A stretch of DNA of 36,719 bases from an uncultured virus (IMG/VR IMGVR_UViG_3300021197_001448) (IMGVR_UViG_3300021197_001448), one strand, 5' to 3'; counted from the first letter of the stretch, positions 5,139 through 36,719 are shown. Numbers and translations: made by a program. The notes: generated from the sequence alone by a model not told the origin.

Positions 5139-6020
5139 TTAATTGGAAGGATTATCCATGAGGTCTTTAACCTGCTTGAGCAATCCTTCAATCTCGCCAA
5201 TAACGCCAAGATTGTTTCGCCCTGCGTGTTTTGTCAAAGAAGCAAGTCGTTGCTCAATAGTGTCAATGTTTGGTCCATTAGCACGTGAACCTCCTGCATC
5301 GTTGTAGTGCATATGTAGGCTACTTCCCTTTGGAGTATATTCGGTTTTAGCAAATGCTGGCATCTTTACTGTTTCACTTACAATAGATTTCTTTGGTCCG
5401 TCATTTGTTGCAGGGTATGTGCCGTTAGTTGTAAATCCGTGTGCATCGACTGGCATTCCGCCATCTACGTTTTGGAACTTAGGGAATAAGTTTTCAACAC
5501 TTGATTCTTGACTGTATTTTTTGAGTTCTTTTCCGCACTCTCTATCGCATTGTGCTTTTTGTTTGGATGAACATTCAGAATAACTGCAATTAAAGTGCTT
5601 TTGGCAGTATTTGTTCTTCTCGTTCATGTCTGCTTTATTCATCCCGCAACCACCCATGCAATCAACATTCTTACAGTCGGAACATTCGGTGTTTTTCTCA
5701 TCGTTCTTGATAATTCCTAACTCTCTAAGAAATTCTGTTGTTTTGTCAATTTTAGTAGTGTTGCCTTTTGGAGTAGGTAAATTAGGTGATTTTCTTTCGC
5801 CCCGATCAGACTTGTAACCCATTGATCCTTCAATTGCCTTTGCACGTTTCTTTTCGTAGCCTGACAATTTGCCGTCTTTGTCAAGATCGGCCTTTTTCTT
5901 ATTCTTGACTTCTTTGAGCAACGTTGCTACGTCTTTCAATAATCTGCCTTCTGGAGTTTGTTCGAGGGGATTAAACCATTGTATGCTCATGCTTTCACCT
6001 GCTTTTCTGCTTCTTCCCAC
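5139..6020 (-). CDS. Hypothetical head-module protein with an EF-hand-like loop and Cys-rich segments (likely start 5990, MSIQWF)
   Basis: ADLDKDGKLSGYE motif; CxxC clusters; ATGA overlap with the upstream gene at 5987-5990 and a GGTGA RBS. Confidence 0.7.
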   Translation of the reverse strand: MGRSRKAGESMSIQWFNPLEQTPEGRLLKDVATLLKEVKNKKKADLDKDGKLSGYEKKRAKAIEGSMGYKSDRGERKSPNLPTPKGNTTKIDKTTEFLRELGIIKNDEKNTECSDCKNVDCMGGCGMNKADMNEKNKYCQKHFNCSYSECSSKQKAQCDRECGKELKKYSQESSVENLFPKFQNVDGGMPVDAHGFTTNGTYPATNDGPKKSIVSETVKMPAFAKTEYTPKGSSLHMHYNDAGGSRANGPNIDTIEQRLASLTKHAGRNNLGVIGEIEGLLKQVKDLMDNPSN

Positions 6021-6307
6021 TCACGTAGTCGTTCATCTCTTGATTTAAGAAATAAATCTCCGCTTCCTGAGAATGGAGTGTTATCGACTGAAACAGTTCG
6101 ATTCAATGGATCGAATGTTTCATCGGCATGAGGCGTTGTAAATTTCTTCCATCCCTGTTTTCGCATAAGCATTTCAGGATCGCTCATTGCTTTGTGTAGA
6201 GTGTTGTTCTCTGCTTCGAGAGCCTGGACTCGTTGATTAAGAATACGAACCTCAGTAATGACTTGTTTTAGAATGTCAATATGTTCTTGATTATCTTCTT
6301 CGCTCAT
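5987..6307 (-). CDS. Hypothetical coiled-coil protein
   Basis: Heptad-like segment ILKQVITEVRILNQRVQALEAEN; translationally coupled to both neighbours. Confidence 0.7.
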   Translation of the reverse strand: MSEEDNQEHIDILKQVITEVRILNQRVQALEAENNTLHKAMSDPEMLMRKQGWKKFTTPHADETFDPLNRTVSVDNTPFSGSGDLFLKSRDERLREWEEAEKQVKA

Positions 6308-17459: not shown

Positions 17460-18755
17460 TCACCTCTTGCCTGTCAATCCCATCTCATTGCTCAAAGCCA
17501 TATCAACAAAAGCCCTGTAAGGTTTATCTTCCTCATTCAATTTAGTTGCGCCAGTTGGTGCTGATGCAGTATCGCCATTTACCTGTGCGCCAACCTTACC
17601 TTCGTTTCCAAGTTCAGGTGTGGCTTTTGTCAATTTGTTGAGTTGTTGAACTAACTTCTCAATCTTACGTTTCATAGCCATTATTTCAGAACGTGAAATA
17701 TTTAATTTTGATTTGTGAATGTCTGATTTAGCAACTAAAGGATCGTGAATCCCAAGAGCATCACCTATTGCGTTTCTTGAAAATTTATTGGTTCCAGTTC
17801 CCATGCGTGATACTGATGGCAACTTTGTTCCAGGACCAATTGTGCCTCCTTGAATAACACCACGCTTTGTTCCCACCCCTCTTGTATCAGCGTGGTGAGT
17901 TAATCCACGTGGGAGAGAGCCGACTTGCCTTCGCATTCGCTCATATGCCTTTTTTCGTTCCCATGCAATAGGATCTCTCAATCGAAGCGGAATAGCCTCT
18001 GATCTTGAACGGCCTACGCCTCTAACTGCTTCTGTGTGTTTAATTGGATGAAACGCTTGCCTACGTGAGCCTCGATCAACATCTAATTCAAGATTACCTG
18101 CACGTCGCTTTGTCATAGATTTGATTTGTCGGCCTCCACGTGCCGCCTTTCCTTTCTTTGCCTGTCGCTTCTTTTTTCGCTTTCGCTTGGCCTTTCCTTT
18201 ACGTTCATCTTCATCAGAATCTTCGTCATCATACATATGACGGCCTTTGTATTTTCGTCTGCCTTTTGAGATGCTATCCCAAGTAGAATCAAATATCTCG
18301 TCACTGGTTTTTCCAAGCATAGCAGGGACTACTGAATTGCTTTGACCATATTTTACGTTAGGTCCTTCACTACGAACTGAACCCGCATTGAATCCATTTG
18401 ATAAACCGATGCCGTTTCTATTCATATCCAGTCCGATACCTGCTTCAAGCATAGTCTGTTCTTGTTCAAATTGGGGCGATCTCCCTAAAGTATCATCTAT
18501 TTTTTCTGGTTTTATGCTAATATGCGGTATCTTTGGGGCTAATTCAGCCACCGCACGTTCTTTTCGCTTTGCAGGATCTTTTTGATCACGGCTATGAGTA
18601 TCTTCTGGAGTTTCACGGCCATGATGAGATAAACCGTCACTATCTTCATTCGGATTGATGTCGTGATCAATCATCTCACGTGGGCGGAATCCGCCTGTCA
18701 CTTCTTGAGTTCTTGGAGTCCAAAGAAGTGGCTCTCTTGGATTACTACTGACCAT
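17460..18755 (-). CDS. Hypothetical protein with a highly basic K/R-rich central region (possible DNA-binding core protein)
   Basis: KAKRKRKKKRQAKKGKAARGGR segment; internal IFDSTWDSISKG leader-like motif. Confidence 0.7.
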   Translation of the reverse strand: MVSSNPREPLLWTPRTQEVTGGFRPREMIDHDINPNEDSDGLSHHGRETPEDTHSRDQKDPAKRKERAVAELAPKIPHISIKPEKIDDTLGRSPQFEQEQTMLEAGIGLDMNRNGIGLSNGFNAGSVRSEGPNVKYGQSNSVVPAMLGKTSDEIFDSTWDSISKGRRKYKGRHMYDDEDSDEDERKGKAKRKRKKKRQAKKGKAARGGRQIKSMTKRRAGNLELDVDRGSRRQAFHPIKHTEAVRGVGRSRSEAIPLRLRDPIAWERKKAYERMRRQVGSLPRGLTHHADTRGVGTKRGVIQGGTIGPGTKLPSVSRMGTGTNKFSRNAIGDALGIHDPLVAKSDIHKSKLNISRSEIMAMKRKIEKLVQQLNKLTKATPELGNEGKVGAQVNGDTASAPTGATKLNEEDKPYRAFVDMALSNEMGLTGKR

Positions 18756-22786: not shown

Positions 22787-22799
22787 TATTCCGCCCTCT

Positions 22800-23734: not shown

Positions 23735-24247
23735 ATGAGCGAAGTAAATATGATTGAAGCCGTACACGCACTTCGATCTTACAACGTAGCATTATCTGGA
23801 ATGACTAATGATCCGCAAAGTGTTACTTCATGGATTACACGCTATGCTGAAAACGATGGCAAAGCACCTAATTTTTGTAAGGATGCAGCCATTGGTTTAT
23901 TGTGCCATTTAGGAAACCCGATCTATAATTATGGAAACCTCAACAACGAACAGCAACAATGGTCTGGAATATACAGTAGTGCTGAACAGGCTTTAATTGA
24001 AGAAGCAAATTGGCAAAACAGCCAGTTATCTCAATCGACTCAAACTTCTTTTGCTCGCTTATTCAGTTCAGATATTCAATGGATTCAACTTTACAGCCAA
24101 TCTCTTCAATATCCTTCTGATGTTTCGTTTGAGTATTTTGTGAATAAAATAATCACCGATTTCCGAGCCTGTCAAGGTTCAAATGGCGCAGGTGGAATCT
24201 CTCATTCTCCAATGACTCCGCCAATCATGCAACAACAAATACCTTAG
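23735..24247 (+). CDS. Hypothetical protein; the only credible + strand gene
   Basis: 170-aa ORF filling a gap with no - strand gene; convergent stop overlap at 24244-24247. Confidence 0.7.
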   Translation: MSEVNMIEAVHALRSYNVALSGMTNDPQSVTSWITRYAENDGKAPNFCKDAAIGLLCHLGNPIYNYGNLNNEQQQWSGIYSSAEQALIEEANWQNSQLSQSTQTSFARLFSSDIQWIQLYSQSLQYPSDVSFEYFVNKIITDFRACQGSNGAGGISHSPMTPPIMQQQIP

Positions 24248-26538
24248 AACAAAGTACGTTGCGCTGGTGGAGGATTCTTACGCCTTTCCCATGCTGATTG
24301 AAATGCGTCTTGATCTATGTTTGCCATAGCCATCATTTCACCTACTTTGACTCGGCCTCCAGAAACAGGAGTTGCTCTTTCTAAACGTTGAAGTGGCTCA
24401 ATATGGAAACCTGCTTCTTCCAACGGTTTGACAATTGAAGGATGCATTGAATTGAAAACTGTTGTTGGGATCCCTCTATTTTTTGCATCGATCAATTGCT
24501 CGATCAAGAGTTTCTGTTCTGGTTCAAGGAAATGGTTGTGTGCGCCTTGTTCTCCAAAATAAGGGCTATCAACCAAAAATTGACTCGTTTCGGGATTCAT
24601 TTTATCTTTTACATCATCGTAAAAATCAAATGCGCTTCCAGTACGATATTCCCAATCTTTCATTGCTTCATGCCATCTTGTTAAATCGTGAATTCCGCCT
24701 TGACCTTTCATTCTTTGAGGTCTTGCCAAATTACCACCTGGCTTCATTAAACGATAACTCCCTGCACTTGGAGATCGGCCAGTATATTTGTATTCTCCCT
24801 TATCATTGTAACCTGCGAGTCCCGCATCTATGAATTGATTGAAGAAGGCATCTTCTATCGGTTGATTAACTGGGGTTTTTGCCCCCCTTGCCCCTGGTGA
24901 TACGGAATACGGAATATCCAAAGAAGGCAACGCATTCGACGGTGCATATCGAACTAAACCGTTCATTCCCATTTGTTGAAGAATATAAAATTTAGAATTC
25001 ATATCATCAATGTCTTGATCAGTTGCCATTCCTAATCTTTCCTTTTCTCTCAACTTGTTAAAGTCATGACGTAATTTGTAAAAGTGCGCTGGAAGAAACG
25101 TTTCGTTGCCTTCGCCAAATAAAGTTGCCAATTCGGGAGTGATTTCTCCCAAATTCATCATTCCCAATTCATCATGTGGGAAAAGAATGGGATCGCCTTC
25201 TTTTAGGTTCTGTGCAGTAACGTCTATTTTCATCGGTTTTTCGATTATACCTCTATTCAAACGTCCTAAATCGGGATTGATGTCATTCAATATGGCTCTT
25301 TTTGCTTGATATTGATGGGATAGCCCCCCCATCCCTGCAAAATTCTCATAGGTATCTCTCTCGCCAAGAACATCACGTATAGCCCTCATGATGTGACGAT
25401 ACATAGGTGCATTTTTTACACCTTGAATTGGCAAAACGGTTTTCAACGGTTCGCCTTCCTTATATCCTCTGAGCGCAGGAGTCGGCATCTTTTCAAGACT
25501 CATTTCATCTCGTATTTGTATGCTCTCTAACGCTCTGCGAATAACATCGCCTGATAAAGCAGAATCCCAAACTTCTCTTCCTGCGCCCGTCAAATCACGT
25601 GGATCAAAATACAATCCATGCGTTCCAGTTGAAATACCTCTCGAAACCGCAGGTTGATCATAATCGCCAGTTAAACTCAATGGAACAGGAACGCCTTCAT
25701 AGCGATAGCCCGTTTCTGGATGTTCCCATTCAACATATCGGCCTCCTTTGCTTTGACGTGCAAGTTCAGGTGCTTGCTGACCTGCGAAGTGTAGCGGTAT
25801 TCTGAGCAATGGATCTACTGAACCAGATACTCTGTGACCACGTGCGGAACGGAATGGCAAAGCAAAATCATCACGGTATTTTCGATTTTCCATTTTCCAT
25901 TTTTTATTGTGTGGCAATGACTTATCTTCCAAATCATAAACCTCATATGCAAAACGAGGGGCTTCGTACAGATCATCACCATACTTCCATGATAACATAC
26001 TGTCGCCAAAGTCGTTTCGATCTAAAACCAAATCATCAGTCATACCAAGAATTTGTTGAGGTGTTTGTTCCCCTCCCATCATTGCATTTAATTCCGCCGC
26101 ACTCAAATCTCCTGCCGTCCACATATGAGCAGTTCGATTTGCTTTTCGATCCCGATCAGGATTGCCAAGAAATGCTGAACGTTGCGCCTTTTCATCTAAT
26201 CTAAAGAAAGGATTATTGATCGGCAATACGTTGGAAATCGCTATTGGTTTTTGACCTCTCATAACGCTTAATGCGCCAGTATTTGGTCTAATTTCCCCAG
26301 TAGATTTTATACGACCTGGATTTAAATGCAAACTCGTAGAGTCGATGTTACGGAATGCCTCTATGTTGTGTGGTCTGCCCACTCGAAAATTGGTCATTCG
26401 GTCTAAATTGAGATTACCTGCTCTATCTTCAAGAGGATATGCCGTAACGCCATCAAGAGAAACGGTTCCCATTTTAGGCCGATCACGCTTATTGCGCTTG
26501 AACTGGTCATACCAAGCCTTCTCAAATATGTCTGTCAT
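24244..26538 (-). CDS. Leader-bearing two-domain protein: unknown N-terminal domain plus a Dam-like (D12-class) DNA adenine methyltransferase
   Basis: LPIQGVK (motif X), YENFAGMGGL (I), AILNDINPDL (II), FLVDSPYF (IV, a DPPY variant). N-terminus MTDIFEKAWYDQFK. Confidence 0.7.
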   Translation of the reverse strand: MTDIFEKAWYDQFKRNKRDRPKMGTVSLDGVTAYPLEDRAGNLNLDRMTNFRVGRPHNIEAFRNIDSTSLHLNPGRIKSTGEIRPNTGALSVMRGQKPIAISNVLPINNPFFRLDEKAQRSAFLGNPDRDRKANRTAHMWTAGDLSAAELNAMMGGEQTPQQILGMTDDLVLDRNDFGDSMLSWKYGDDLYEAPRFAYEVYDLEDKSLPHNKKWKMENRKYRDDFALPFRSARGHRVSGSVDPLLRIPLHFAGQQAPELARQSKGGRYVEWEHPETGYRYEGVPVPLSLTGDYDQPAVSRGISTGTHGLYFDPRDLTGAGREVWDSALSGDVIRRALESIQIRDEMSLEKMPTPALRGYKEGEPLKTVLPIQGVKNAPMYRHIMRAIRDVLGERDTYENFAGMGGLSHQYQAKRAILNDINPDLGRLNRGIIEKPMKIDVTAQNLKEGDPILFPHDELGMMNLGEITPELATLFGEGNETFLPAHFYKLRHDFNKLREKERLGMATDQDIDDMNSKFYILQQMGMNGLVRYAPSNALPSLDIPYSVSPGARGAKTPVNQPIEDAFFNQFIDAGLAGYNDKGEYKYTGRSPSAGSYRLMKPGGNLARPQRMKGQGGIHDLTRWHEAMKDWEYRTGSAFDFYDDVKDKMNPETSQFLVDSPYFGEQGAHNHFLEPEQKLLIEQLIDAKNRGIPTTVFNSMHPSIVKPLEEAGFHIEPLQRLERATPVSGGRVKVGEMMAMANIDQDAFQSAWERRKNPPPAQRTLF

Positions 26539-27662
26539 TATGCGCCCTCACCCCGATTAAGCCTTATTTTTCCAACTTGTGGTTTGTTAATATACCCCAC
26601 ATTAGGAACTTTACTATCCATGCAAGCCAAGCAATTTGCGCTCTCTTGTGGACCGTATGTTGCGTTTGGAACGCAAGCCTTTGCTGGTGAGTTAGGGTCA
26701 TCTTTCGGACAAAAATGTATATCTCCGACTATTGCTGAATCAGGCAGCATTTCTGAATCAACAAGCCATTTATCCCATACTTCCGACCTCAATGTTTGAG
26801 GATGATCTAAAACCCTTCTTTGAGATTGATTCAAAACACCGTGTTCTCCGACAACATTCCGATTCCATTCGTCATCAATAGTTTGATTTCTAAACGGCAT
26901 CGACATTCTTAATCTAACATTTGGAGGCAACGCATCATGAGCATAACCTCTTGCTGACAAGACTTTATTCACCATTCCAAACTCTCTTGTTGGAATCCAA
27001 TGGATCACATCGGGATTCAAAGTCGCCATATCAAGAAGCATAGCCAAATGTTCAGGTGAATGCAAATCTCCCGAATCAAACATACGGAATACGGGATAGC
27101 CACCATGCGATTCTGTGGGGATTTGTGAAGCCAATTGAGAATGATAACCGATTGGGTCTTGCAGCATATCATTGTAAGACTTTAGTTGATTTCGAGTTGC
27201 ATTGTTGCTATTGTAAGTGAATCCCTCAGCATAGCAACCATAGCAAGTTGAATCTCTCTTGTCTTTCAAGTGTTTTCCAGTCGCACATAGTTCTGTTGGA
27301 TATGATGTTGAGCGTGAAGGCATTGTTGAAGTATCAGCCAAATAAACAGGCAATCGTCTATCCGAATCTGCCATTGGATTGCTAAAATCAATTTTAGGAA
27401 GGCTTCTTGCTGCGTGATGTTGCGCCAATAAGTTCTCATTCAAAGGATAATTCATTTTGACTTTGCGAAGATCGGTCATTTTTCTTTCGCCTTCTGGCGA
27501 GTTGATGTAATTTTGGACTTCAAGCCCTCCTTTTGGGAACTTTTCATTTGCGTAAAGCAATTCATTCCACGTGAAATCCATTGGGTCAATTTGCATTCTC
27601 CCTCCTGGACCTTCAATCAAGGGCATTTTTAACAATGACCAAGCGGTTTCAAAACAATTCAT
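26538..27662 (-). CDS. Leader-bearing GP88-like (radical-SAM-related, Cys-rich) protein
   Basis: C.TG..L......CYGCYA.G, FRMFDSGDL, HWIPTRE, PPNVRLRMS and C-terminal CP...C..C motifs. N-terminus MNCFETAWSLLKMP. Confidence 0.7.
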   Translation of the reverse strand: MNCFETAWSLLKMPLIEGPGGRMQIDPMDFTWNELLYANEKFPKGGLEVQNYINSPEGERKMTDLRKVKMNYPLNENLLAQHHAARSLPKIDFSNPMADSDRRLPVYLADTSTMPSRSTSYPTELCATGKHLKDKRDSTCYGCYAEGFTYNSNNATRNQLKSYNDMLQDPIGYHSQLASQIPTESHGGYPVFRMFDSGDLHSPEHLAMLLDMATLNPDVIHWIPTREFGMVNKVLSARGYAHDALPPNVRLRMSMPFRNQTIDDEWNRNVVGEHGVLNQSQRRVLDHPQTLRSEVWDKWLVDSEMLPDSAIVGDIHFCPKDDPNSPAKACVPNATYGPQESANCLACMDSKVPNVGYINKPQVGKIRLNRGEGA

Positions 27663-27671
27663 GCGATCACC

Positions 27672-28997
27672 TCAATTATAATCCATCAACCTGCGTTGGA
27701 GGTTGTTACCTACTACTGATCTGCCTATTGCTCTTGCTACTGGAGGGGCAACTGCATTACCAATTATTTGATCAACAGCAGCGATTGATTTTGTGTTACC
27801 TGATCGGGGATTAAATTTACGCCAATACTGTCCTTCTGCTGGTGATAGATCGTAAGTAGGCCGCCCACCTTGAAGCATCATGATTTCTTGGGGGGTCAAA
27901 TACCGATTATACATATGTGATGGTTTGTTATGTGTAATTCCAGTTACGGATGAAGTGAGTGGTTTTCTGTGTAAGAAAGCCGTTCCAGGACCTCCTTCTT
28001 GACTTGGATGCTTTGAATTTATGTTAAGCCAAGAAGCACCCCCTCTACCTGGATTCTTACCACCTGATTGTGAAATAAAACCTTGACTCATAAGGTAATC
28101 AAGAACTTCTTGACTAATTCGACCTTTATCTCTATATTCAGTCAATTTTGCTAATTTGTTTGGCCTGTTTTCTTCTTCTTCTCGTTGAAGATGTGGCAAA
28201 AAATCAAGCACAGTAGGGTTAGGTAGCCTACCTGGTTTTGATTTGTAAGTTGAATTGTAATGGGTAGGTTCTGCATTCCATCCTTCACCGATAAATGTTC
28301 GGCCTCTTGTAGTGGGTGCGCCAAAGTTAATTGCATCTAATTTTGGATTACTCGTCAATAGCCCCATTACTTTTTTCTTAAAGGGAGGGGTGACATATTT
28401 ATCGAGAAAATGCGGATTTTCTTTTAGATATTTAGCAACATCTGGTGCTTCTTCAAGTGACCATGATGCCAAGTCTATATCGGGGTGTTTTATCATCTGT
28501 TCTACTGTGTAGAGAGCATCTCCAATCAAAGGCATAGCAGCGACTCTATCTTCTTCTATTTCTTCGGGTGTTTTAGCCGCAACACTCGATCCTTGTCGTT
28601 GCGCTCTTGTAAATGCTTGACACGGAGGCGATGCGTGAAAGTGAATCTTTTTTCCTTGAGAGATGTCGGCGTAATGCTCAACCATGTCATCTGGATGTCT
28701 TTGGCCTTGATCTCTGCCAAGATAACCGCTTAGGACTTCACCTTCTTTTTGATTTAATAATCTGACATCGTTTGCAGGTTTCCATGCATCAATAGTTGAT
28801 AAGATCGGGATTCCTGCTGATCGAAAACCTTCATCAGCAAACCCTCCACCTGAATACTGCGTAATTGCGCCAAAATCATCTCGCAGTGGCATTTGCGGGA
28901 ATCTGCGTAGATATTCTTCATCCATCACTTTTAGATCTTCGGGGGTCATCTTCTCAATCATAGTCGAGTAGGCTTCCTGAAATAAAGCCTCGCCCAT
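27672..28997 (-). CDS. Leader-bearing DNA (cytosine-5) methyltransferase
   Basis: YSGGG (I variant), ASPPCQAF (IV), LEEA (VI variant), TTRGRTF (VIII), RYLTPQEIMMLQG (IX), IIGNAVAPPVARAIG (X). N-terminus MGEALFQEAYSTMIEKM. Confidence 0.85.
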   Translation of the reverse strand: MGEALFQEAYSTMIEKMTPEDLKVMDEEYLRRFPQMPLRDDFGAITQYSGGGFADEGFRSAGIPILSTIDAWKPANDVRLLNQKEGEVLSGYLGRDQGQRHPDDMVEHYADISQGKKIHFHASPPCQAFTRAQRQGSSVAAKTPEEIEEDRVAAMPLIGDALYTVEQMIKHPDIDLASWSLEEAPDVAKYLKENPHFLDKYVTPPFKKKVMGLLTSNPKLDAINFGAPTTRGRTFIGEGWNAEPTHYNSTYKSKPGRLPNPTVLDFLPHLQREEEENRPNKLAKLTEYRDKGRISQEVLDYLMSQGFISQSGGKNPGRGGASWLNINSKHPSQEGGPGTAFLHRKPLTSSVTGITHNKPSHMYNRYLTPQEIMMLQGGRPTYDLSPAEGQYWRKFNPRSGNTKSIAAVDQIIGNAVAPPVARAIGRSVVGNNLQRRLMDYN

Positions 28998-29085
28998 GCA
29001 TGACGGATTGCACTATCAGTCAAGAACTTATCTTAATCAGTAAGTGTATAGAGAGACTTTAATTATAAAAATACATTTCCAAAAC

Positions 29086-29178
29086 TGGCGAGCAAGTAGC
29101 GGCTCCTGTTTATCACGTAGTAACTCTCAATCAACGCACGTTTGGATTTTGGGCGATCTGAACAATGCTTGCTCGCCA
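29086..29178. ncRNA. Candidate ~93-nt RNA closed by an 11-13 bp terminal stem
   Basis: TGGCGAGCAAG (29086-29096) and CTTGCTCGCCA (29168-29178) form a perfect inverted repeat in an intergenic gap; TATA-like TTTAATTATAAA at 29058-29069. Confidence 0.4.
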
Positions 29179-29181
29179 CCC

Positions 29182-30114
29182 TCAAATGACTCTCCAGTTT
29201 AATCTATCTTGGAATTCTGAAAATGCGCCTGTTGGATCGTTTGCTTTTTCTCCCCACGAAGTATCATAAGTTCTCAATTCTTCCATAGGAATGTCCTGTG
29301 CGCTCAAACCTTTTGGCAAATCAGGGATAAGACGACCCATACCTGGAACCAATTCACGCCCAAAGAAAAATGATGGAGGCACAGCATTACGCCTTCGTCC
29401 AAAGGAAGCAGGTATTCCATACCCACCAATTGCCTTTCGATGTTCTTCGTTAAAATTCGGATCAAACAGATCAGGATAATCTTCTTGTAAATGCGGGAAA
29501 AGAGCATATCTATTGCTATCTAAGCCCATCAAACGCCTCATATCTTTCCCATAAATCATTTCACGATCATAATTATATTGCGGTTTTTTCAACTTTTCAT
29601 TCATTGTTGATGAAATCATATAAGCGGGAATAAATGGCGCATTCATTCTTCGCAACGCTTCAACACGATGATTTCCTTCACCAATCATCCATCCACTCGG
29701 ATTAAAATTTAGTTGAGGTATCGCAACATTTCCAACAGAATCTTTTTGTTCTGCTGCTTTGTCATAACGTTTCAGCCCTTCCGCTTTGGCATCTAAACCT
29801 CGATCTTCATCTGAGCGATGAACCCACCAATCGGAGTTCCTACCTAACATTCCATGTTCCATGATGCTCTCCATCAACCGTTCCACTTTTTGATCACCGA
29901 TTCCAAAATTAGATGGAGATTTGCCTTGAAAATGTCGTGTAGGTGGTAACATTTCAGTCGGAACAAAATCTAACGAAGATGAGGCTCCTGCATAACCTCG
30001 TTTGTTCTTACCACGTCCTCCTAAGACTTCATATAAAGGAGCATAGATTTCTTCCCACATCCCCTCATCGATCTTGACGATGGAATCCCATGCCTGTTCA
30101 AACACATCAGACAA
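29182..30114 (-). CDS. Leader-bearing ParB/Srx-like nuclease-domain protein
   Basis: VERLMESIMEHG...IGEGNHRVEALRRMNAPFIPA. Start reassigned to TTG 30114 (GGGAGG RBS), giving MSDVFEQAWDSIVK. Confidence 0.7.
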   Translation of the reverse strand: MSDVFEQAWDSIVKIDEGMWEEIYAPLYEVLGGRGKNKRGYAGASSSLDFVPTEMLPPTRHFQGKSPSNFGIGDQKVERLMESIMEHGMLGRNSDWWVHRSDEDRGLDAKAEGLKRYDKAAEQKDSVGNVAIPQLNFNPSGWMIGEGNHRVEALRRMNAPFIPAYMISSTMNEKLKKPQYNYDREMIYGKDMRRLMGLDSNRYALFPHLQEDYPDLFDPNFNEEHRKAIGGYGIPASFGRRRNAVPPSFFFGRELVPGMGRLIPDLPKGLSAQDIPMEELRTYDTSWGEKANDPTGAFSEFQDRLNWRVI

Positions 30115-30730
30115 TGTAATTCCTCCCGCAATCAAACGGACAGGAAATACCACCTAATAGTCGATTATACCTCACTTCTTCTCCTGGTGAGATGGATCGT
30201 TGGCAAACAACACAGTTACCTGGATAACGAGCAGGGAATCGACCCGACATGGCTTTGTTTAGATCTTCTTCTGAAACCTTAGCATTAGGTCGCCTCAATT
30301 CACCACTTTCAAGTCGCTTCATGGCTTCTTCGACTGGTTTTCCTCTGAACGTGCGCCTTGTAGATCGGGTTTCATCTTTTGTTGATTGGAGTTCATGCCT
30401 TTCTTTCATCTCAGGGTCTGCTTCCCAATTTTCTCTACGCTTTTCTTGATCGCGTACGATCCTTCTCGCATTCTCTTCTGATCCTGGTTCATACCGTCGA
30501 AGTGCATTCTTCTCACGTTGTTTCATTCGAGAGGCTTCGTTTGCCCAATAGTGAACAATGCCTCTTGTTACTGGAATCCCCTCTTCGTTGAACAATCTCC
30601 AGATTGCTGCTTGACTCATGCCCTCAGATGCGAGTTGTGATATGCGCTTGATGTCATCTTCTGTGAGCGTATATCTTCGATCTGCTGCTGGCATTTTGAG
30701 CAAATCCCACGCTCGGTCAAAGGCGGTCAT
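30107..30730 (-). CDS. Leader-bearing HTH protein with a C-terminal Zn-ribbon-like domain
   Basis: LASEGMSQAAIW...VTRGIVHYW (HTH-like); ARYPGNCVVC..SISPGE...C..C. N-terminus MTAFDRAWDLLKMP. Confidence 0.7.
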   Translation of the reverse strand: MTAFDRAWDLLKMPAADRRYTLTEDDIKRISQLASEGMSQAAIWRLFNEEGIPVTRGIVHYWANEASRMKQREKNALRRYEPGSEENARRIVRDQEKRRENWEADPEMKERHELQSTKDETRSTRRTFRGKPVEEAMKRLESGELRRPNAKVSEEDLNKAMSGRFPARYPGNCVVCQRSISPGEEVRYNRLLGGISCPFDCGRNYIV

Positions 30731-31443
30731 TGTCCTCTCTCCCTCAAACGCCTTACAAAATCATGTGGTTTTGAACCACCAATCAAAATATCATTTGTTG
30801 TGACTTTATCCCAAAGCGGTTGTTCACTGTATAAATCTTCAAGGGCTTCATACAATTCTCCTGAATGCACTTCATCGCCTCGTAAATCAGGATAAATTGA
30901 TTCCCAGTGATCATGACCGCCTTTTTTGGGAGGTAAGAAAATCCTATCCCACGCTTCGTTTTCATCGCCTTCATCATCGTAATGTTCTTCCTCAAAATCA
31001 TCCATTTCCTCATCATACAGATCTGAATCAATGATATTTTGAATGATTTGGGCTACGTGTTTATCAGGCAATTTTTGTGAATAAGGCGGGACAACGCCTT
31101 CTTCGTCATGAAAAGCCACACGGCCTCTTTCAATTGCGGCTGAAAGACCATTCCCCATGTATTCTTCATCTCCCGGAACATCAATGTATTCATCCTTTGG
31201 CGCAGTTGCCATGTGTAATTCGGGATAATGCACATTTGCATCAACAAAAGGCGAACCCTGATAATCGTTGCGTGGACCAAACATTGCGTAGGCCAAAGCC
31301 TTTGATTTGTGCGGAGTCCAATATCCTGTGTCTTTGTCACCAGTCCTTCGACCTTGATACAAATAATCAGTCTGCAACCCGCCATCCTCCACAACAAAAG
31401 GCATTTTGAGCAGATCCCAAGCGGTGTCAAATGGCTTAGGCAT
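30727..31443 (-). CDS. Leader-bearing acidic protein, possible ADP-ribosyltransferase-like fold
   Basis: YLYQG...GYWTPHKSKALAYA...DEEY pattern. N-terminus MPKPFDTAWDLLKMP. The fold call is tentative. Confidence 0.5.
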   Translation of the reverse strand: MPKPFDTAWDLLKMPFVVEDGGLQTDYLYQGRRTGDKDTGYWTPHKSKALAYAMFGPRNDYQGSPFVDANVHYPELHMATAPKDEYIDVPGDEEYMGNGLSAAIERGRVAFHDEEGVVPPYSQKLPDKHVAQIIQNIIDSDLYDEEMDDFEEEHYDDEGDENEAWDRIFLPPKKGGHDHWESIYPDLRGDEVHSGELYEALEDLYSEQPLWDKVTTNDILIGGSKPHDFVRRLRERGQ

Positions 31444-31480
31444 AAATTACGCAAGTCCCATCAAAACATAAAGGCATTCC

Positions 31481-31511
31481 AAAGAAAAAAAAAATTAAGC
31501 GAGATTTCTCT
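31481..31511 (-). terminator. Oligo-T archaeal-type terminator preceded by a short hairpin
   Basis: GAGAAATCTC followed by TTAATTTTTTTTTTCTTT on the - strand. Confidence 0.5.
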
Positions 31512-31713
31512 AATTAAGCATGGTTTCGAGCGTAGCCCGATCCCCTCAAAAAAAAAACACGAAGATCAACGTTGATAACTAAAACCACATGATTCGACGG
31601 ATTCCAATTCTGGTCTAATTCCAGATCTATAATTGGCTAATCCATGCTTCATGAGCATACGAAACAAACGTTGCCTTCGCTTGAGCAAAGCCTCTTGCAC
31701 ATTAACTGCGAGG
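31485..31713 (-). ncRNA. Candidate structured ncRNA (about 220 nt) between a TATA box and a T10 terminator
   Basis: Multiple nested stems (see findings); TTTAATTTATAA at 31720-31731; T10 runs at 31548-31557 and 31485-31494. Confidence 0.5.
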
Positions 31714-31745
31714 ACGTGGTTATAAATTAAACCTTCTCAGCCCTG

Positions 31746-32486
31746 TTAGGGTTGTTTGTCCTTCTTTTTTGGGGCTTCAATCCATTCTGGATTAACAGGT
31801 ATGGATGGATCGTATTTGTGAATTTCATATGATTTACATTCGGGACATTTTCGCACACGCTCGCCATGCCACCCTACGAATGTTGAAGTTGGACCTGTTA
31901 ATCCACATGAATAACATTCCAGTGGAGATGAGCCGCCGAATATCTCCATTATTTCATCAATCTTTGCGGCAACTGGATTGTCAAATTGAGAATTGTCAAT
32001 AAACTCATCGTCATTGGAATCATCGTCAATAGACTTCATCAAGTCCCAAGCGGTGTCGAAGGCGGTCATTGGCTCACCTGCCAATTTTTCTTGCCAATCA
32101 TCGCTATGGGCTTCATCAATATGAAAATCGCCTATATCGTCTATTTTTGATTCGGGGTTGGGGATGAAAATGCGAGCGTATTTTGGGTCTTTTGGATTCT
32201 TTCTTTTTCTTGATAGGTTTTGTAAATCTTCTTGATAATCAGCCATAGCCTGTTCAGCACCGACATATTCTCCCTTTTCATCGGCCAAACGGTTTGTGCC
32301 AATGTGTGTCCTCTCCATCTGTTGTGGTTTGTCGTTATTCGGCATAAAAACCTCAATCGGTTCAGCAACATGAAACCAACGCTGAAATCTATTGAAATCA
32401 TCATCTCCTTGATCGTATGCTTCTTGAAGTGTTCTTGCGGTGGCATCCTCTTTGCCTTTGCGCCAAGCCGTGTCAAATGCCGTCAT
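31746..32486 (-). CDS. In-frame fusion of two leader-bearing cassettes; the second has a Zn ribbon
   Basis: MTAFDTAW at 32486 and again MTAFDTAWDLMK at 32069 (own GGTGA RBS); CYSC...CPEC in the second unit. Confidence 0.7.
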   Translation of the reverse strand: MTAFDTAWRKGKEDATARTLQEAYDQGDDDFNRFQRWFHVAEPIEVFMPNNDKPQQMERTHIGTNRLADEKGEYVGAEQAMADYQEDLQNLSRKRKNPKDPKYARIFIPNPESKIDDIGDFHIDEAHSDDWQEKLAGEPMTAFDTAWDLMKSIDDDSNDDEFIDNSQFDNPVAAKIDEIMEIFGGSSPLECYSCGLTGPTSTFVGWHGERVRKCPECKSYEIHKYDPSIPVNPEWIEAPKKKDKQP

Positions 32487-32899
32487 TCCAAATCACGCAT
32501 CCGCCGTTCATATTCGGGAAAGTCGATGCTGCTTGCTGTTCCATCAAAAGGATCAATCAAAGTTTCATCTTGGCGTATTGCATCTTCTAAATTGAATGGC
32601 TTTCCATCACCAAAAAGACCCTGAGTTTCCATCGCATCATTTATTCTTTTATCTACAAAAGGATGAATACAACGGCTACAATGATTAGGAATCCCTTCAA
32701 CAAGATTGTTAATTTCGCTGAAACATTCAATGCATTCAGACGGGAAATTTACACTTGGATCAGGATCGAGTTCTTCACCACTCATTGAAACCAAGTGCCT
32801 ATTTAGTTCAGCAATGCCTTGTTTTTCTTTCTCAGAGAAAAAACGAAAATGCCCCGATGACATTTTGAGCAAATCCCAAACGTCATCAAATGCCGTCAT
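32483..32899 (-). CDS. Leader-bearing small Zn-finger protein
   Basis: MTAFDDVWDLLKM from ATG 32899 (ATGA overlap with the upstream stop); CIEC...CSRC. Confidence 0.7.
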   Translation of the reverse strand: MTAFDDVWDLLKMSSGHFRFFSEKEKQGIAELNRHLVSMSGEELDPDPSVNFPSECIECFSEINNLVEGIPNHCSRCIHPFVDKRINDAMETQGLFGDGKPFNLEDAIRQDETLIDPFDGTASSIDFPEYERRMRDLE

Positions 32900-33267
32900 G
32901 GTTGCCCTCTCCAATTAGGAAGCCCTTGCCAGGACTCATTCAATTCATGAATACCATCAATTGCCCATTCCTCTTCATTTGGTATTCCTGAGCCTTCACA
33001 TGAGGTGCAAGTTCCTAAAGAAATCGTGTAGCCTTGTGCTTTATTTTCACGTTCTTTGTAGGGATAAATTGTTTTACCATTCTCCAATAAGTCCATTATT
33101 TCATCAAGACTCAATGGTGGCGAGCCATCACCAGTCATGTGAGTCGGTCTGGTAAAAGTGATTTCGCCAGTTCCCCTGCAATTAGGACAAATCCCTCTTT
33201 CATACATCTCTATTTCATCAGGCTTGCGTTCTTTCATGAAATCCCAAGCCGTGTCAAATACCGTCAA
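32896..33267 (-). CDS. Leader-bearing protein with DnaJ-type CxxCxGxG Zn-finger repeats
   Basis: TTG start gives MTVFDTAWDFMK; CPNCRGTG and CTSCEGSG repeats. Confidence 0.7.
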   Translation of the reverse strand: MTVFDTAWDFMKERKPDEIEMYERGICPNCRGTGEITFTRPTHMTGDGSPPLSLDEIMDLLENGKTIYPYKERENKAQGYTISLGTCTSCEGSGIPNEEEWAIDGIHELNESWQGLPNWRGQP

Positions 33268-34133
33268 AACCACACCGCCTTGAATCTATTCTTTGTTTCG
33301 TTGTATTTGTTTTTTACGGCAATCCTAATCGTTGGACTCTTAATCTTGTGCGCTAACTTGCGAGCCGCTTTGAGATCGGACAACTTAACTCCACAGGAAA
33401 TGCCCTGTTGATTACACCACTTGACCAAATCCTCAGTTGCGAGGTTAGCACCAGATCCCTGAACAAACGGACAACCACCTAATCCCCCTATGCTCGCATC
33501 GAATTCTCGAACACCAAGTTCATATCCTGTTGAAACGTTATCCATCAGATGTTTTCCGTGATGTAAATGTAGAGATATGAATTCTGTCAAATAACGAGTT
33601 GCCCGTACAGATACTGCGATTTGGAACGGATCAGCAGTTCCTTTGGTATCACACAAAACAATCCGATCTCCAAACTTCAAACCTTCTTTGACCGCTTTTA
33701 CTAATTCATCAATCGTTGCTTCAAACGCTTCTGAAATATACACTCGAATACAATCTCTTGGGATCCCTTTCAACGATGTTTCATAGTTGGCGATTATCTG
33801 TTCCTGTGTTAAACCATAGTTAGCAAGGTTAAATGAATTCATGGGTGAAAAGAAAATGTTGAATTGCTTCATCCCACATTCCATTGCCCGATCAAGGCCA
33901 CGCTTGTTTGGGATGAGAACAGAGAATCCAGTTTTGTCATCGAAAGCATCACACACATCTTTTGCATCGGCCATGTTAGGAACTGCCTTTGGATGAACGA
34001 ATGAGGCAACCTCTATTCGAGTAAGGCCAGCATCACGTAGCAACTTGATGAGTTCGATCTTATCTTCTGTTGATGGGACGTGCGGCAGGTTTTGTAGCCC
34101 ATCACGTGGTCCGACCTCAAAAATCCTAATCAT
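33264..34133 (-). CDS. hmgL: Hydroxymethylglutaryl-CoA lyase family protein (DRE-TIM metallolyase)
   Basis: EVGPRDGLQN, IEVASFVHPKAVPNMAD, LCDTKG, LHLH and FDASIGGLGGCPF...NLATEDLV motifs. Confidence 0.9.
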   Translation of the reverse strand: MIRIFEVGPRDGLQNLPHVPSTEDKIELIKLLRDAGLTRIEVASFVHPKAVPNMADAKDVCDAFDDKTGFSVLIPNKRGLDRAMECGMKQFNIFFSPMNSFNLANYGLTQEQIIANYETSLKGIPRDCIRVYISEAFEATIDELVKAVKEGLKFGDRIVLCDTKGTADPFQIAVSVRATRYLTEFISLHLHHGKHLMDNVSTGYELGVREFDASIGGLGGCPFVQGSGANLATEDLVKWCNQQGISCGVKLSDLKAARKLAHKIKSPTIRIAVKNKYNETKNRFKAVWF

Positions 34134-34948
34134 CAATATCCCTCCAACCAGGGGCTTTTGCCGTCAATTTGAACCGTCTTAGGATTATCGGAATAAGGCT
34201 CAAGTTCTTCCAAGTAACCGTAAAAACTTTGCATCAATCCGCCATAGTCTGATTCTCCAGGGTACTCGTATTGACGATCTCGGCCAAGAACATCTAACAT
34301 ACGAGATGCTGGCAATTGTATCTTCCACTTGTCTAAATCCTCTTGAAGTATTTCACCGACTGTTTGTTGAGGATAGTCTTTACCTGGAATGTTTGGTGCA
34401 TTAGGCCACCAATCATGAGGACTCGTATGTTCCATATCGGCATCATAAAACCTCCAATTCCCTGTTTGATCTTGACCCCAATTAGCACCGACCCGATCTC
34501 CAAAGGCATGGTTTAACAAAATATCAGCAATGCCCAATCTATGCCGACCTTTCCGACCCACCCCCGTATCAACTGCGTGTTGGTTAAGGCGTGGCTGAAC
34601 CAAATACTCGCCCTGAACATCTAACTCAGATGATACAGGAAAGCCCATTTCTTCCATAATTTGAGGAATATTTTGGGGATAACCTGTTCGCCACATTAGT
34701 TCACGTGAGTCATCTTCAACCCTCCGAGCAAAATATCCGTGAGGTATTTTTACCACAAATCTTTCATCATTTGGATGAGGAAGTGTTGTAAGAGAATTTC
34801 CTTGCCCCATAATATCATCTAAACTCTCTTCACTTATCAAGCGTCTTTGTTCTGATTCGGACAACCAGGGTAAATCCTCAGCAATGCTTCTCCAGTTAGG
34901 AGTCCATTCTTTAGCGATAGAATCCCAAGCGACAGCAAAAGAACTCAT
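34133..34948 (-). CDS. Leader-bearing atypical kinase (PI3/4-kinase/HipA-like catalytic motifs)
   Basis: MGQGNS Gly-loop, FVVKIP, HAFGDRVGANW catalytic loop, RFYDAD. N-terminus MSSFAVAWDSIAK from ATG 34948. Confidence 0.65.
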   Translation of the reverse strand: MSSFAVAWDSIAKEWTPNWRSIAEDLPWLSESEQRRLISEESLDDIMGQGNSLTTLPHPNDERFVVKIPHGYFARRVEDDSRELMWRTGYPQNIPQIMEEMGFPVSSELDVQGEYLVQPRLNQHAVDTGVGRKGRHRLGIADILLNHAFGDRVGANWGQDQTGNWRFYDADMEHTSPHDWWPNAPNIPGKDYPQQTVGEILQEDLDKWKIQLPASRMLDVLGRDRQYEYPGESDYGGLMQSFYGYLEELEPYSDNPKTVQIDGKSPWLEGY

Positions 34949-35880
34949 TGCTCTTTCCTCTCCCATGCTTTTTGATCTAATGTGTGATTATAGAACCAAT
35001 CGAGATAATCAAGGCGAGAAAATTGTCTAACAAATTCATCCCATTCTTCCATTGTCATTCCTTCATGCCCTATTGCATATGGCCTTATATTTTTAGGAGG
35101 GATTCTTTCTTCTATCATATAATGCCCAAAATCAGAACCCAGATCATATCCGTGTTTACGTGGATCAACCCACTCACTATCGCGTGGAACATCAAATCCT
35201 AAAATAGCAGGGGCTTTCCCCGACTCTTCAAATCGATCATCAGCATACCTTTCAGCCTCTTCTTGATTTACAGCACCAAAAGACCATTCATCCAACCCCT
35301 CGCTCATAATGCTTGGAACATATTCTGCTAATGTTCCATGCCATAGATCGGGTTCACGGTATGCCTTCTCCATCAAATCATCACGGCCAATCCAAGATCG
35401 GTGGCCTTTGTCGTTATAATCAGAAAACCTGTGATGTAAAGCCTCTACAAATCTTTCAGCATCAGATGATTGGGCATCTGACTCATACATCTTTTCACCA
35501 TGATGGTCTTGAACAATCTGCGTAATTAAATCCATTAAAGCAGTAGCATATCCTCGCTTTCGATATTTCCGATCAGTACCCATCTCAGTAGGATGGATAA
35601 AAGAATTATAATCTCCCCTATCTTCATGAAATTTATCTGTGTCAAATTGAATAAAAGATCTCCATGTTGGAAAACCTCTTTCATTTTCACCACGATCTAT
35701 GAACGCCCCTCCGTATTTGCCACCAGGTTGTGAATCTCCGATGCCACCAGTGATCGGGAGAATCTCGCCTGTGACTGGATCTTGAAATTCTCCTGTGTAT
35801 TGTGTTCCATCCTCGTTTCTTGTAACCGAATGCGGAACAATGGGCATCTTGAGCAATTCCCACGCTTTCTCAAAAGACAT
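34945..35880 (-). CDS. Leader-bearing GNAT acetyltransferase plus ADP-ribosyltransferase-like two-domain protein
   Basis: TDRKYRKRGYATALM (acetyl-CoA-binding motif A) and QSSDAERF; then LWHGT....SIMSEGL...AERYA...ERIPPKNI (ART/Tpt1-like). N-terminus MSFEKAWELLKMP. Confidence 0.7.
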   Translation of the reverse strand: MSFEKAWELLKMPIVPHSVTRNEDGTQYTGEFQDPVTGEILPITGGIGDSQPGGKYGGAFIDRGENERGFPTWRSFIQFDTDKFHEDRGDYNSFIHPTEMGTDRKYRKRGYATALMDLITQIVQDHHGEKMYESDAQSSDAERFVEALHHRFSDYNDKGHRSWIGRDDLMEKAYREPDLWHGTLAEYVPSIMSEGLDEWSFGAVNQEEAERYADDRFEESGKAPAILGFDVPRDSEWVDPRKHGYDLGSDFGHYMIEERIPPKNIRPYAIGHEGMTMEEWDEFVRQFSRLDYLDWFYNHTLDQKAWERKEQ

Positions 35881-36719
35881 CAATAGCCCTCCAAAAATTC
35901 AGCCCTGCCATCAATCAAAACACTTTGAGGGTTATCTGAGTATGGCTCAATCTCAGTCAATAGATCGAACAATTGAGGATGATGTTTTCTTTCAAAGCCA
36001 TATTTGTCAAGTGTGTTCAACAACGGACTTGCTGGCAACTGTATGCCATAATCGTCTAATCCTTGTTGTAGGACTTCTCCTTTCGTCTTTGTCGTCTTTG
36101 TCGTCTTTGCCCCTGCCCATGAATCTGTTCCCTCAAAGATGCTGTCACTCGGCCACCAATCATATGTGGATTTGTAATCCATATCTGGATCTATGAATCT
36201 GTAATTACCAGTCTGATCAATACCAAAGTTCGAGGGGTATCGATCACCAAAAGTGTGATTCAACAACTTATTTGTAACATCATCATTTGGCCTCTTATTC
36301 TTTCGATTCCTTCTCAACGATTGAGCATATGTCGAAGGTTCAACGTATGGTTGAACCATATACCTGTTATCGACATTCAGTTCTGATGCAATCGGATAAC
36401 CATAACTTTCTAAAATCGAAGGAAGAGGTTGCCCAACTTGGATCTCACGTCCTGTCGGCTTACCCATTCTCCAATTGAAAATTCTTTCCCCCTTATCGGC
36501 ATCACTCTCAGTCCACGATTCACTATTTTTTCGTGGTAATTTTATGACAAATTTATCATCATAGGGGTGTTCAAAAGTGTCAAAGGATCCACCCGATCCA
36601 AGATAACTGGGAAGCAAATCGAAATCATTATTCTCACGGTTGTTATATCCGTGAGCGATTTCATGCCAGTCTAACTTAGGCAGATTCCTGGCAGTTTCAC
36701 GCCAGTTAGGAGTCCACTC
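35880..36719 (-). CDS. Atypical kinase, paralogue of 34133-34948 (5' end beyond the window)
   Basis: The frame is open to the window edge (EWTPNWRETARNLP...); LGSGGS, FVIKLP, HTFGDRYPSNF, RFIDPD motifs. Confidence 0.7.
   Translation of the reverse strand, partial: EWTPNWRETARNLPKLDWHEIAHGYNNRENNDFDLLPSYLGSGGSFDTFEHPYDDKFVIKLPRKNSESWTESDADKGERIFNWRMGKPTGREIQVGQPLPSILESYGYPIASELNVDNRYMVQPYVEPSTYAQSLRRNRKNKRPNDDVTNKLLNHTFGDRYPSNFGIDQTGNYRFIDPDMDYKSTYDWWPSDSIFEGTDSWAGAKTTKTTKTKGEVLQQGLDDYGIQLPASPLLNTLDKYGFERKHHPQLFDLLTEIEPYSDNPQSVLIDGRAEFLEGY

Follow-up and report, generated by a model that had tools for sequence, protein, structure and literature searches.

The 36,719-nucleotide stretch of DNA from the uncultured virus IMGVR_UViG_3300021197_001448 (here called the window, that is, the whole stretch that was analysed) carries, between 24.2 and 36.7 kb, a tightly packed array of genes whose otherwise unrelated products share a 12-residue N-terminal leader of the form M-T-A-F-D-x-A-W-x-Φ-Φ-K (core F-[DE]-x-A-W-x-Φ-Φ-K, Φ being a hydrophobic residue). 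The existence of this leader and its distribution, the constraint on it as a peptide and the swapping of cassettes at it are observed directly. The explanation of its role that we favour, if tentatively and from sequence evidence, is that the leader may be a tag comparable to the capsid targeting sequence (CTS) of phage T4, which would load cargo proteins into the viral head and be cut off after its lysine.

The virus itself is assigned, from the published description of the group together with gene content, as a tailed, magrovirus-like archaeal virus (Marine Group II / Poseidoniales). Magroviruses are tailed viruses with genomes of ~65-100 kb; the published account gives them a halovirus-like head module and an archaeal-type replication block, in many cases a chaperonin as well, and connects them with Poseidoniales (PMC5434244). 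Nearly every gene of the window lies on the minus strand, and its left two thirds hold a tailed-virus head module and a run of large proteins without a family match. The large terminase (TerL) has 106 relatives in IMG/VR, many of them on marine viral contigs of 65-108 kb, and five of the genomes with such relatives were taken whole (G002-G006), so that six genomes, including the window, were compared. G002 is ~93% identical to the window and G003-G006 are more distant; the most complete relative is G006, with 108 kb, whose opposite strand carries a thermosome-type chaperonin, a UvrD-like helicase, and ERCC4 and PD-(D/E)XK nucleases. This gene content and the TerL relatives together match the published description of the magroviruses.

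A shared leader on unrelated proteins

When the six-frame translation of the window was searched with the regular expression F[DEAQ]x[AV]W, 13 matches were found, 12 of them on the minus strand and all of these between 24303 and 35874; the thirteenth, at 18176 on the plus strand, falls in a short non-gene open reading frame (ORF) and is a chance match. Ten of the 12 are N-terminal, 5-17 residues past the upstream stop, and are spread over 24.2-36.7 kb. The other two lie at 32060, in frame inside the ORF 31746-32486 with its own Met retained, and at 24303, 20 residues before the C-terminus of the 764-residue Dam-like protein. The structural half of the window has no copy, apart from a looser internal one at 18264-18296. 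Twelve leaders had been listed in an earlier, sequence-only reading of this DNA, and 11 of them fit the pattern, the start of the C5-methyltransferase at 28997 (MGEALFQEAYSTMIEK) being merely leader-like and missed by both the regular expression and the hidden Markov model (HMM) of the leader. The copies also vary among themselves: the hydrophobic pair before K is absent at 26538 (..AWYDQFK) and 32486 (..AWRKGK), the leaders at 30114 and 34948 are one residue longer (AWDSI[VA]K), and the genes at 30114 and 33267 begin with TTG, not ATG. Nine of the 12 gene junctions in the array overlap, mostly by 4 nt.

The same leader is found well beyond the window. Among 10,491 six-frame segments of the six genomes the HMM gave 77 matches of at least 8 bits, against 0 in the reversed sequences, and a degenerate DNA pattern for the core gave 7, 14, 11, 1 and 13 matches in G002-G006, against 0 for the reversed pattern. 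Over all loci examined there were 428 HMM matches of at least 10 bits, 301 of them unique; a Met stands at most 4 residues upstream of F in 247 of these 301, and many of the others begin with GTG or TTG. The 288 bodies of at least 40 residues behind the leader fall into 115 groups without a BLAST link at E<1e-4, including 77 singletons, the largest group being partly an artefact of fused ORFs, and each genome carries 15-20 tagged genes. With ten N-terminal copies in the window and 115 unrelated body groups, the claim of a real N-terminal leader on otherwise unrelated proteins stands, and so does the claim that similarity stops at K, since no position past K is conserved among the 101 usable sequences (one per family); what follows K is acidic or Pro-rich. 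Few copies, of a weaker form ([AG]-W-x-[IL]-[LIVM]-K), occur in G005, and more distant relatives, with TerL only 47-48% identical, still have 3-4 strict matches.

The distribution of the leader within genomes is equally uneven. All 17 matches in G006 lie on the minus, morphogenesis strand and none in the plus-strand replication block (46-76.5 kb), and in G003 17 of 18 lie on the morphogenesis strand and one on the replication strand; the motif is thus not equally common on replication proteins. It is not a feature of host proteins either. When 185,579 prokaryote species, each represented by one genome, were scanned with the strict pattern, it matched a single contig (loci L219-L221; G011:C2, 106,262 bp), which belongs to a Poseidoniales single-cell genome and carries a TerL 78% identical to that of the window and a thermosome gene. 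With a looser pattern, all 11 matches in this 1.2-Mb assembly were again on the viral contig. This single-cell genome looks like an infected cell, and the restriction of the only cellular matches to a viral contig marks the motif as viral and links the virus to its host.

Constraint on the peptide and exchange at its DNA

With one sequence taken per family, F and W are present in 101 of 101 leaders, K in 98 and A in 96, and among 271 distinct 36-nt leader DNAs F and W are each encoded in 270 and K in 262, with several codons for each conserved residue. The use of TTT and TTC equals the genome background (p=0.32), and that of AAA and AAG deviates mildly (p=0.0085). A wide range of residues is tolerated at the solvent-facing helix positions 3 and 6, and the conserved residues are spaced i, i+3, i+4, i+7. 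Background-like synonymous codons, two free positions and helical spacing together indicate selection on an amphipathic helix. A membrane anchor was considered for this helix and rejected, given its net acidic character and the soluble enzymes to which it is attached.

The DNA of the leader has a history of its own. Codon bias is strong at leader positions 2, 3, 5, 6, 7, 10 and 11 (p from 7e-14 to 5e-92), with ACC used for Thr at position 2 in 116 of 173 cases against 24 expected and GCC for Ala at position 7 in 1 of 253 against 29 expected. Between the window and G002, 10 of 16 internal edges of homology blocks lie at or within ~40 nt of a leader, and the blocks span the start codon of a gene, that gene and the leader of the next gene, and then end. 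Cargo bodies are therefore exchanged by recombination within leaders, and the codon bias together with these breaks shows that homogenisation and recombination also act at the DNA level. The earlier argument that synonymous variation reveals selection on the peptide is accordingly half right: conservation is not a matter of DNA alone, because F, W and K are near-invariant with Phe codons at background, but codon choice at several other positions is too strongly biased for the peptide to be the whole story.

The same observations bear on a second explanation, by which the leader would be a cassette adaptor, a shared start kept for micro-homology in body swapping and as a tuned translation start in an overlapping operon, the peptide itself having little function. 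Block edges at leaders, codon choice far from background and ATGA/TTGA start-stop overlaps at most junctions are all as this explanation would have them. It does not account for near-invariant F, W and K with codons at or near background, for the permissive positions 3 and 6 and the helical periodicity, or for the persistence of the motif in viruses with TerL only 47-48% identical; moreover, internal copies in fused ORFs retain the motif even after loss of their Met (in G004, PELFKKSWDLMK), and the HMGL-like gene is leaderless within the same overlapping operon. We consider it improbable as the main cause of the conservation.

The tagged proteins

The array had been read as an array of enzymes. 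Of the labels given to tagged proteins, only Dam-like, GP88-like and C5-methyltransferase are upheld by matches above the Pfam cut-offs (Table 1). The kinase and ADP-ribosyltransferase (ART) labels have weak yet concordant support from fold comparison, the ParB-like label is a lead only, and the helix-turn-helix label of the gene at 30730 was not confirmed, its one match being a PHROG of unknown function. For the ParB-like protein (29182..30114) there is an Atlas match to ParB_N with a score of 0.91 that rests on few shared features, and no match in Pfam, NCBIfam or PHROG. In the alignment of the kinase-like family a Gly-rich loop can be recognised, together with an invariant K and the motifs H.FGDR...N / D.D. 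The AlphaFold2 (AF2) model of the protein is of low confidence (pLDDT 62.4); its top Foldseek hits are all kinases, the best being Rio2 (E 8.9e-4). The orthologue of the second kinase-like paralogue in G002 starts MTAFAQTWDLVKEWTPNWR.

In the largest cargo group of the relatives the sequence YHGT begins two residues past the leader K, and H16 and G30 are invariant. Weak profile matches against the PDB point to Tpt1/KptA (E 1.1e-3) and DarT (E 2.5e-3, over 133 profile positions), and the top Foldseek hits of the AF2 model (pLDDT 71.8) are all ART folds (best E 2e-3, TM score only ~0.33). The 311-residue protein of the window is laid out as leader, conserved ~45-residue module, weak GNAT match (18.8 bits, under the cut-off of 20.7) and C-terminal ART-like part with the motif LWHGT, from which alone its ART label derives. 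Its module, MP[IL]VP.S...F.DP.T.E..P, follows the leader directly on differing C-terminal bodies in a family of 27 sequences and may be a second-tier adaptor. The upstream ~140-residue module of the ORF 31746..32486 continues in frame into another complete leader with a different cargo in all three of its occurrences (the others in loci L207 and L144).

Among 113 of the 115 family representatives (two that cross locus borders were left out), only three, GP88, D12 methyltransferase and DUF6321, exceed curated Pfam cut-offs; sub-threshold Zn-ribbon matches are many, and most cargo families in the relatives are without a known domain. The one clearly metabolic gene in the array, an HMGL-like gene whose match to the NCBIfam HMG-CoA lyase (197.7 bits) is below the cut-off of 246, is leaderless and is an internal control for the tag. 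Among the auxiliary genes of Poseidoniales viruses, PMC11706807 mentions one for a pyruvate carboxyltransferase.

Several of these folds are toxin-like, and the ART-like core begins so close to K that the helix could pack on the fold or block it. The leader might on this account be a timing signal, a degron or inhibitory propeptide that a protease or partner would have to relieve before potentially toxic enzymes (ARTs, kinases, nucleases) become stable or active. One inhibitory mechanism is, however, unlikely to serve the same peptide on more than 100 unrelated bodies, tiny Zn-ribbons among them, and the only protease in evidence that might recognise it is the head protease; we think this explanation very improbable.

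Head proteins and candidate cleavage sites

The supposition that a prohead protease is at hand has been borne out: Pfam and PHROG both identify an S78 prohead serine protease next to the capsid gene (Table 1), which is the candidate enzyme for removal of the leader. In the major capsid protein, of which a full-length relative matches Pfam SU10_MCP, residues L39, K40, D42 and P44 around the sequence GTDLLK are invariant in 54 sequences; a profile search of the PDB with the capsid protein alignment gave no match at E <=0.01. In the protease I176, L177, K178 and M179, V312, I313 and K314, and K334 are invariant in 52 sequences, the ILKM site standing where the catalytic domain ends and the VIK site in a disordered linker. 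Such conserved hydrophobic-hydrophobic-K sites in head proteins fit a cut after K.

Neither the protease nor its tail reaches 8 bits with the leader HMM, and the tails of the protease (..DGWRAAEALAAKALRGE) and of the 106-residue protein (..EWEEAEKQVKA) have only a Trp in common with the leader. The nearest resemblances in head proteins are the GTDLLK of the capsid protein and the N-terminal [IL]D[ILV]LK of the 106-residue protein, whose spacing from Met equals that of the K in the leader. An internal leader-like copy is present in the 431-residue core protein of the morphogenesis block, where an extremely basic stretch with K/R runs follows directly in the six-genome alignment; related internal copies of this type occur in five further loci. 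The 431-residue protein has no family match in Pfam, PHROGs or NCBIfam and nothing in Atlas. Its basic stretch would suit a DNA-binding internal head protein. The 1152-residue head-block protein is likewise without a family match in Pfam, PHROGs and NCBIfam; motifs at its residues ~700-900 (K-M-P-N-G, F-D-A-Y-L, D-L-L-V-H-K-G) recall, as we presume, the nucleotidyltransferases of ligases and capping enzymes, which these three databases do not confirm.

The tripeptide [LI]LK was counted in proteins from which the first 16 residues had been removed, with 300 shuffles and the reversed KL[LI] as a control. In the 18 morphogenesis proteins of the window it occurs three times as often as expected (15 against 5.0, z 4.3, 0/300 shuffles), and those of G003 are enriched in it as well (23 against 9.2, z 4.9, 0/300 shuffles). 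The reversed tripeptide is not enriched (4 against 4.9 in the window, 4 against 9.1 in G003), nor is [LI]LK in the replication block of G003 (10 against 6.6, 39/300 shuffles). Many [LI]LK-type sites are retained across the six genomes. A complex prediction for the protease (452 residues), the G002 capsid protein (394 residues) and a 40-residue leader segment, each supplied with an alignment, scored 0.00 in two runs, made without controls, and weighs neither for nor against an interaction.

A proposed tag for loading the head

On the explanation that we favour, the leader would be a portable address tag. It would form a short amphipathic helix, one face of which is made up of F, A, W and the hydrophobic pair, and with this helix the tagged protein would dock to some part of the procapsid during assembly. 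A cut after the invariant Lys by the S78 prohead protease would follow; comparable hydrophobic-hydrophobic-Lys sites, at which the protease would act too, occur in the capsid protein, in the extension of the protease itself and elsewhere among the head proteins. The freed cargo would remain in the head and enter the Poseidoniales host together with the DNA. Among this cargo would be methyltransferases, kinase-like proteins, Tpt1/DarT-like ART folds and numerous small Zn-ribbon proteins. As the tag is at the same time a stretch of near-identical DNA at the starts of tightly packed genes, recombination within it swaps the bodies behind it, and the set of cargo turns over fast.

Several observations lead us to favour head loading. 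The leader genes lie on the strand and in the operon of the head and tail genes, and the replication block is free of them; a core head-block protein of 431 residues has the motif before a basic stretch; and a prohead protease is encoded alongside invariant LLK, ILK and VIK sites and an enrichment of [LI]LK. To these may be added the position of the tag at the N-terminus of unrelated bodies with similarity ending at K, the absence of a leader from the metabolic HMGL-like gene, the T4 precedent, and a putative ART fold in the largest cargo group, comparable to that of T4 Alt.

The leader might instead be a docking helix for a hub outside the capsid, such as the viral chaperonin (thermosome), the host RNA polymerase or proteasome-activating ATPase, or the sliding clamp, at which accessory proteins would be folded, concentrated or regulated in one place without packaging. 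The spacing F-x-x-x-W-x-x-L puts the hydrophobic residues on the same side of the helix, an arrangement typical of peptides that bind in a groove, as in p53-MDM2, and the internal, near-C-terminal and double copies suit a binding motif. Many cargo proteins, moreover, act on nucleic acids, and a chaperonin precedent exists in the part of PMC3012670 that describes how the N-terminus of T4 gp23 targets fusion proteins to GroEL. Chaperonin genes do occur in G006, G009, G010 and the single-cell viral contig, but this co-occurrence is uninformative: G004, the sole record that is rich in leaders and has no chaperonin, breaks off at the very place that the gene occupies in G003. Docking to such a hub also does not predict the orientation shared with head and tail genes or the enrichment of [LI]LK in head proteins. 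In its clamp version it would lead one to expect the leader in the replication block, where G006 has none, and a profile with Gln and an aromatic pair in the order of the PCNA-interacting peptide (PIP box). The PIP-box consensus is Q-x-x-[LIVM]-x-x-[FY]-[FY] and is found on replication and repair proteins; the leader does not fit it, having neither the Gln nor the aromatic pair, and its matches number 0 in the G006 replication block and 1 of 18 on the replication strand of G003. Docking outside the capsid is on balance unlikely, though we take it seriously.

A number of points weigh against head loading itself. The presence of tagged proteins in virions and their cleavage are things we infer, and magroviruses are uncultured. 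That S78 proteases cut after Lys is presumed by analogy with HK97. The strong codon bias of the leader shows that part of its conservation lies at the DNA level. Among the candidate sites, the YTILKM of the protease lies within its Pfam match (residues 29-183) and so may have a structural role, and hydrophobic-hydrophobic-K tripeptides are common in any case, the LLK lineage alone giving a clean enrichment. The leaders of G006 end in [LIV]VK; in this genome [LI]LK is not enriched (12 against 9.7 expected), and [LIV]VK is enriched in the replication block (16 against 7.1) and in the reversed control (17 against 10.6) too; being so unspecific, it leaves no clean co-variation between the ending of the leader and the internal sites of head proteins. 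Proteins with two copies, such as the Dam-like protein with one at both ends and the in-frame double leaders (3/3), are not predicted by a simple propeptide and fit a docking motif or polyprotein processing better. Finally, DNA methyltransferases can work without being packaged, and 15-20 cargo types per genome, some of 600-760 residues, are a heavy load for a ~100-kb capsid.

Comparison with known systems

The closest functional analogy is the CTS of T4 (on IPI-III and Alt), which like the leader is a short N-terminal peptide on unrelated proteins in a tailed virus with a prohead protease. The T4 internal proteins and Alt carry an N-terminal CTS of ~10-20 residues that docks to the prohead core and is then removed by the prohead protease, and the internal proteins of T-even phages form a diverse defence set that shares only this sequence (PMC7411985, PMC3012670). 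Their polymorphic loci resemble the array in their diverse and fast-changing cargo and clustered genes; their ART fold may have a counterpart in the ART-like cargo here. The differences are also considerable: the host here is an archaeon, the protease is of the S78/HK97 type with a presumed cut after Lys, and the system is known from genes alone. T4 gp21 cuts after Glu. Where T4 tags a handful of proteins, the tag is found here on 15-20 genes in each genome, the pan-genome amounts to at least 115 body families, and some copies of the leader are internal or C-terminal.

Prohead proteases more generally, where studied, are all stated to remove an N-terminal propeptide from the capsid protein, and in SPN3US and phiKZ many head proteins are cut by the prohead protease at one motif, their N-terminal propeptides being thought to target the prohead (both in PMC7411985). 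In those giant phages, as there described, the propeptides are 111-130 residues long, no one short peptide is shared and the cut motif is AXE, unlike the leader. Two further systems resemble single aspects of the array. The Dar proteins of phage P1 are enzyme-sized anti-defence head proteins, including the methyltransferase-like DarB, that are carried in the capsid and injected; they differ in that their incorporation is ordered by partner proteins and that they have no common leader. Cargo-loading peptides of encapsulins are short terminal peptides that dock diverse enzymes inside an HK97-fold shell, but the peptide is usually C-terminal, there is neither protease nor DNA, and the shell is a cellular compartment.

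Features of the window and neighbouring genes

Table 1. Head-module proteins and array genes of the window, with leader copies and candidate cleavage sites (a slash marks the candidate cut).
Feature	Position	Strand	Evidence and remarks
Major capsid protein, first 85 residues	1..255	-	Site GTDLLK/ADSP, residues 35-44 (D37-K40 at 136-147)
S78 prohead serine protease, ~270-residue C-terminal extension	268..1626	-	Pfam Peptidase_S78 39.8 bits (cut-off 21); PHROG head maturation protease
Protease, conserved sites	1090-1107; 679-696; 622-636	-	YTILK/M; HVIKSP; NVIKS
1152-residue head-block protein	1669..5127	-	LAISLLK/EGG (2377-2406), then Gly/Ala-rich linker; six-genome alignment
106-residue coiled-coil-like protein, scaffold candidate	5987..6307	-	N-terminal [IL]D[ILV]LK (6266-6286); six-genome alignment
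Portal	7111-8913		Head module
Large terminase (TerL)	10278-11714		Head module
431-residue core morphogenesis-block protein	17460..18755	-	Internal leader-like IFDSTWDSISK, 18264-18296
Dam-like methyltransferase, 764 residues	24244..26538	-	Pfam MethyltransfD12 30.6 bits (cut-off 22); PHROG DNA methyltransferase
Dam-like gene, N-terminal leader, divergent	26497-26538	-	MTDIFEKAWYDQFK; regular expression
Dam-like gene, second leader-like copy near C-terminus	24277-24306	-	AFQSAWERRK; kept in G002 and G004
GP88-like gene	26538..27662	-	Pfam GP88 61.3 bits (cut-off 24.4)
GP88-like gene, canonical leader	27627-27662	-	MNCFETAWSLLK; leader HMM 28.5 bits
C5 cytosine methyltransferase	27672..28997	-	Pfam DNA_methylase 27.9 bits (cut-off 22)
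C5-methyltransferase, degenerate leader-like start	28950-28997	-	No regular-expression or HMM match
310-residue protein	29182..30114	-	TTG start behind GGGAGG; longer-variant leader SDVFEQAWDSIVK at 30073-30111
207-residue protein	30107..30730	-	Canonical leader MTAFDRAWDLLK at 30695-30730, HMM 30.8 bits; PHROG of unknown function only
238-residue protein	30727..31443	-	Leader MPKPFDTAWDLLK at 31405-31443; in 20-sequence cargo family
Two-leader ORF	31746..32486	-	MTAFDTAWRKGK at 32451-32486, without hydrophobic pair before K
Two-leader ORF, second, complete leader	32034-32069	-	MTAFDTAWDLMK, then Zn-ribbon body
138-residue protein	32483..32899	-	Leader MTAFDDVWDLLK at 32864-32899, HMM 27.9 bits
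123-residue Cys-rich protein	32896..33267	-	TTG start overlapping upstream TGA; leader (M)TVFDTAWDFMK at 33232-33267
HMG-CoA-lyase-like (HMGL / pyruvate carboxyltransferase) gene	33264..34136	-	Leaderless; Pfam HMGL-like 89.6 bits (cut-off 29)
Protein-kinase-like protein, 271 residues	34133..34948	-	Leader MSSFAVAWDSIAK at 34910-34948
311-residue protein	34945..35880	-	Leader MSFEKAWELLK at 35848-35880
Second kinase-like paralogue	35880..36719	-	5' end and presumably leader beyond window end

Some further genes of the window deserve mention in their own right. The only sizeable gene on the plus strand (23735-24247) is convergent with the Dam-like gene, stands between the tagged array and the head block and is kept in G003 and G005. 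A 259-residue core protein (22055-22834), conserved in G003, G005 and G006, has a P-loop (GVYGPSMVGKTTL) behind its hydrophobic N-terminus and is without a family match. The gene at 19182-19892, a core gene in all six genomes, encodes a 236-residue protein with CxxC pairs and a hemerythrin-like match below threshold (24.6 bits, cut-off 25.3). An assembly gap of 100 N (14553-14652) falls within a 347-residue ORF (14456-15499) that also contains a PTQQQ-type repeat.

Significance for the magroviruses

Magroviruses are among the most abundant archaeal viruses of the surface ocean, they are uncultured, and most of their genes are without a known function. A term search of the main texts of a few magrovirus papers found no mention of an N-terminal motif or leader, and further full-text searches brought up nothing relevant. 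One short tag on 15-20 genes per genome and on at least 115 families marks a coherent and fast-evolving functional class among these genes. Still more tentatively than for the tag itself, it may be proposed that magroviruses run a plug-in cargo system, in which the capsid would take up any protein bearing the 12-residue tag, the head protease would free it and it would then be injected, with more than 100 effector families shuffled by recombination inside the tag; these effectors would include DNA/RNA ADP-ribosyltransferases, kinases, methyltransferases and small Zn-ribbon regulators. If this is true, it would be the first capsid-targeting system in archaeal viruses, with by far the largest known cargo repertoire, and the leader would offer a small, portable, ready-made packaging tag for HK97-fold shells. 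If the tag does load virions, the tagged set would be the proteins brought into Marine Group II archaea at infection, including nucleic-acid ADP-ribosyltransferase-like and kinase-like enzymes.

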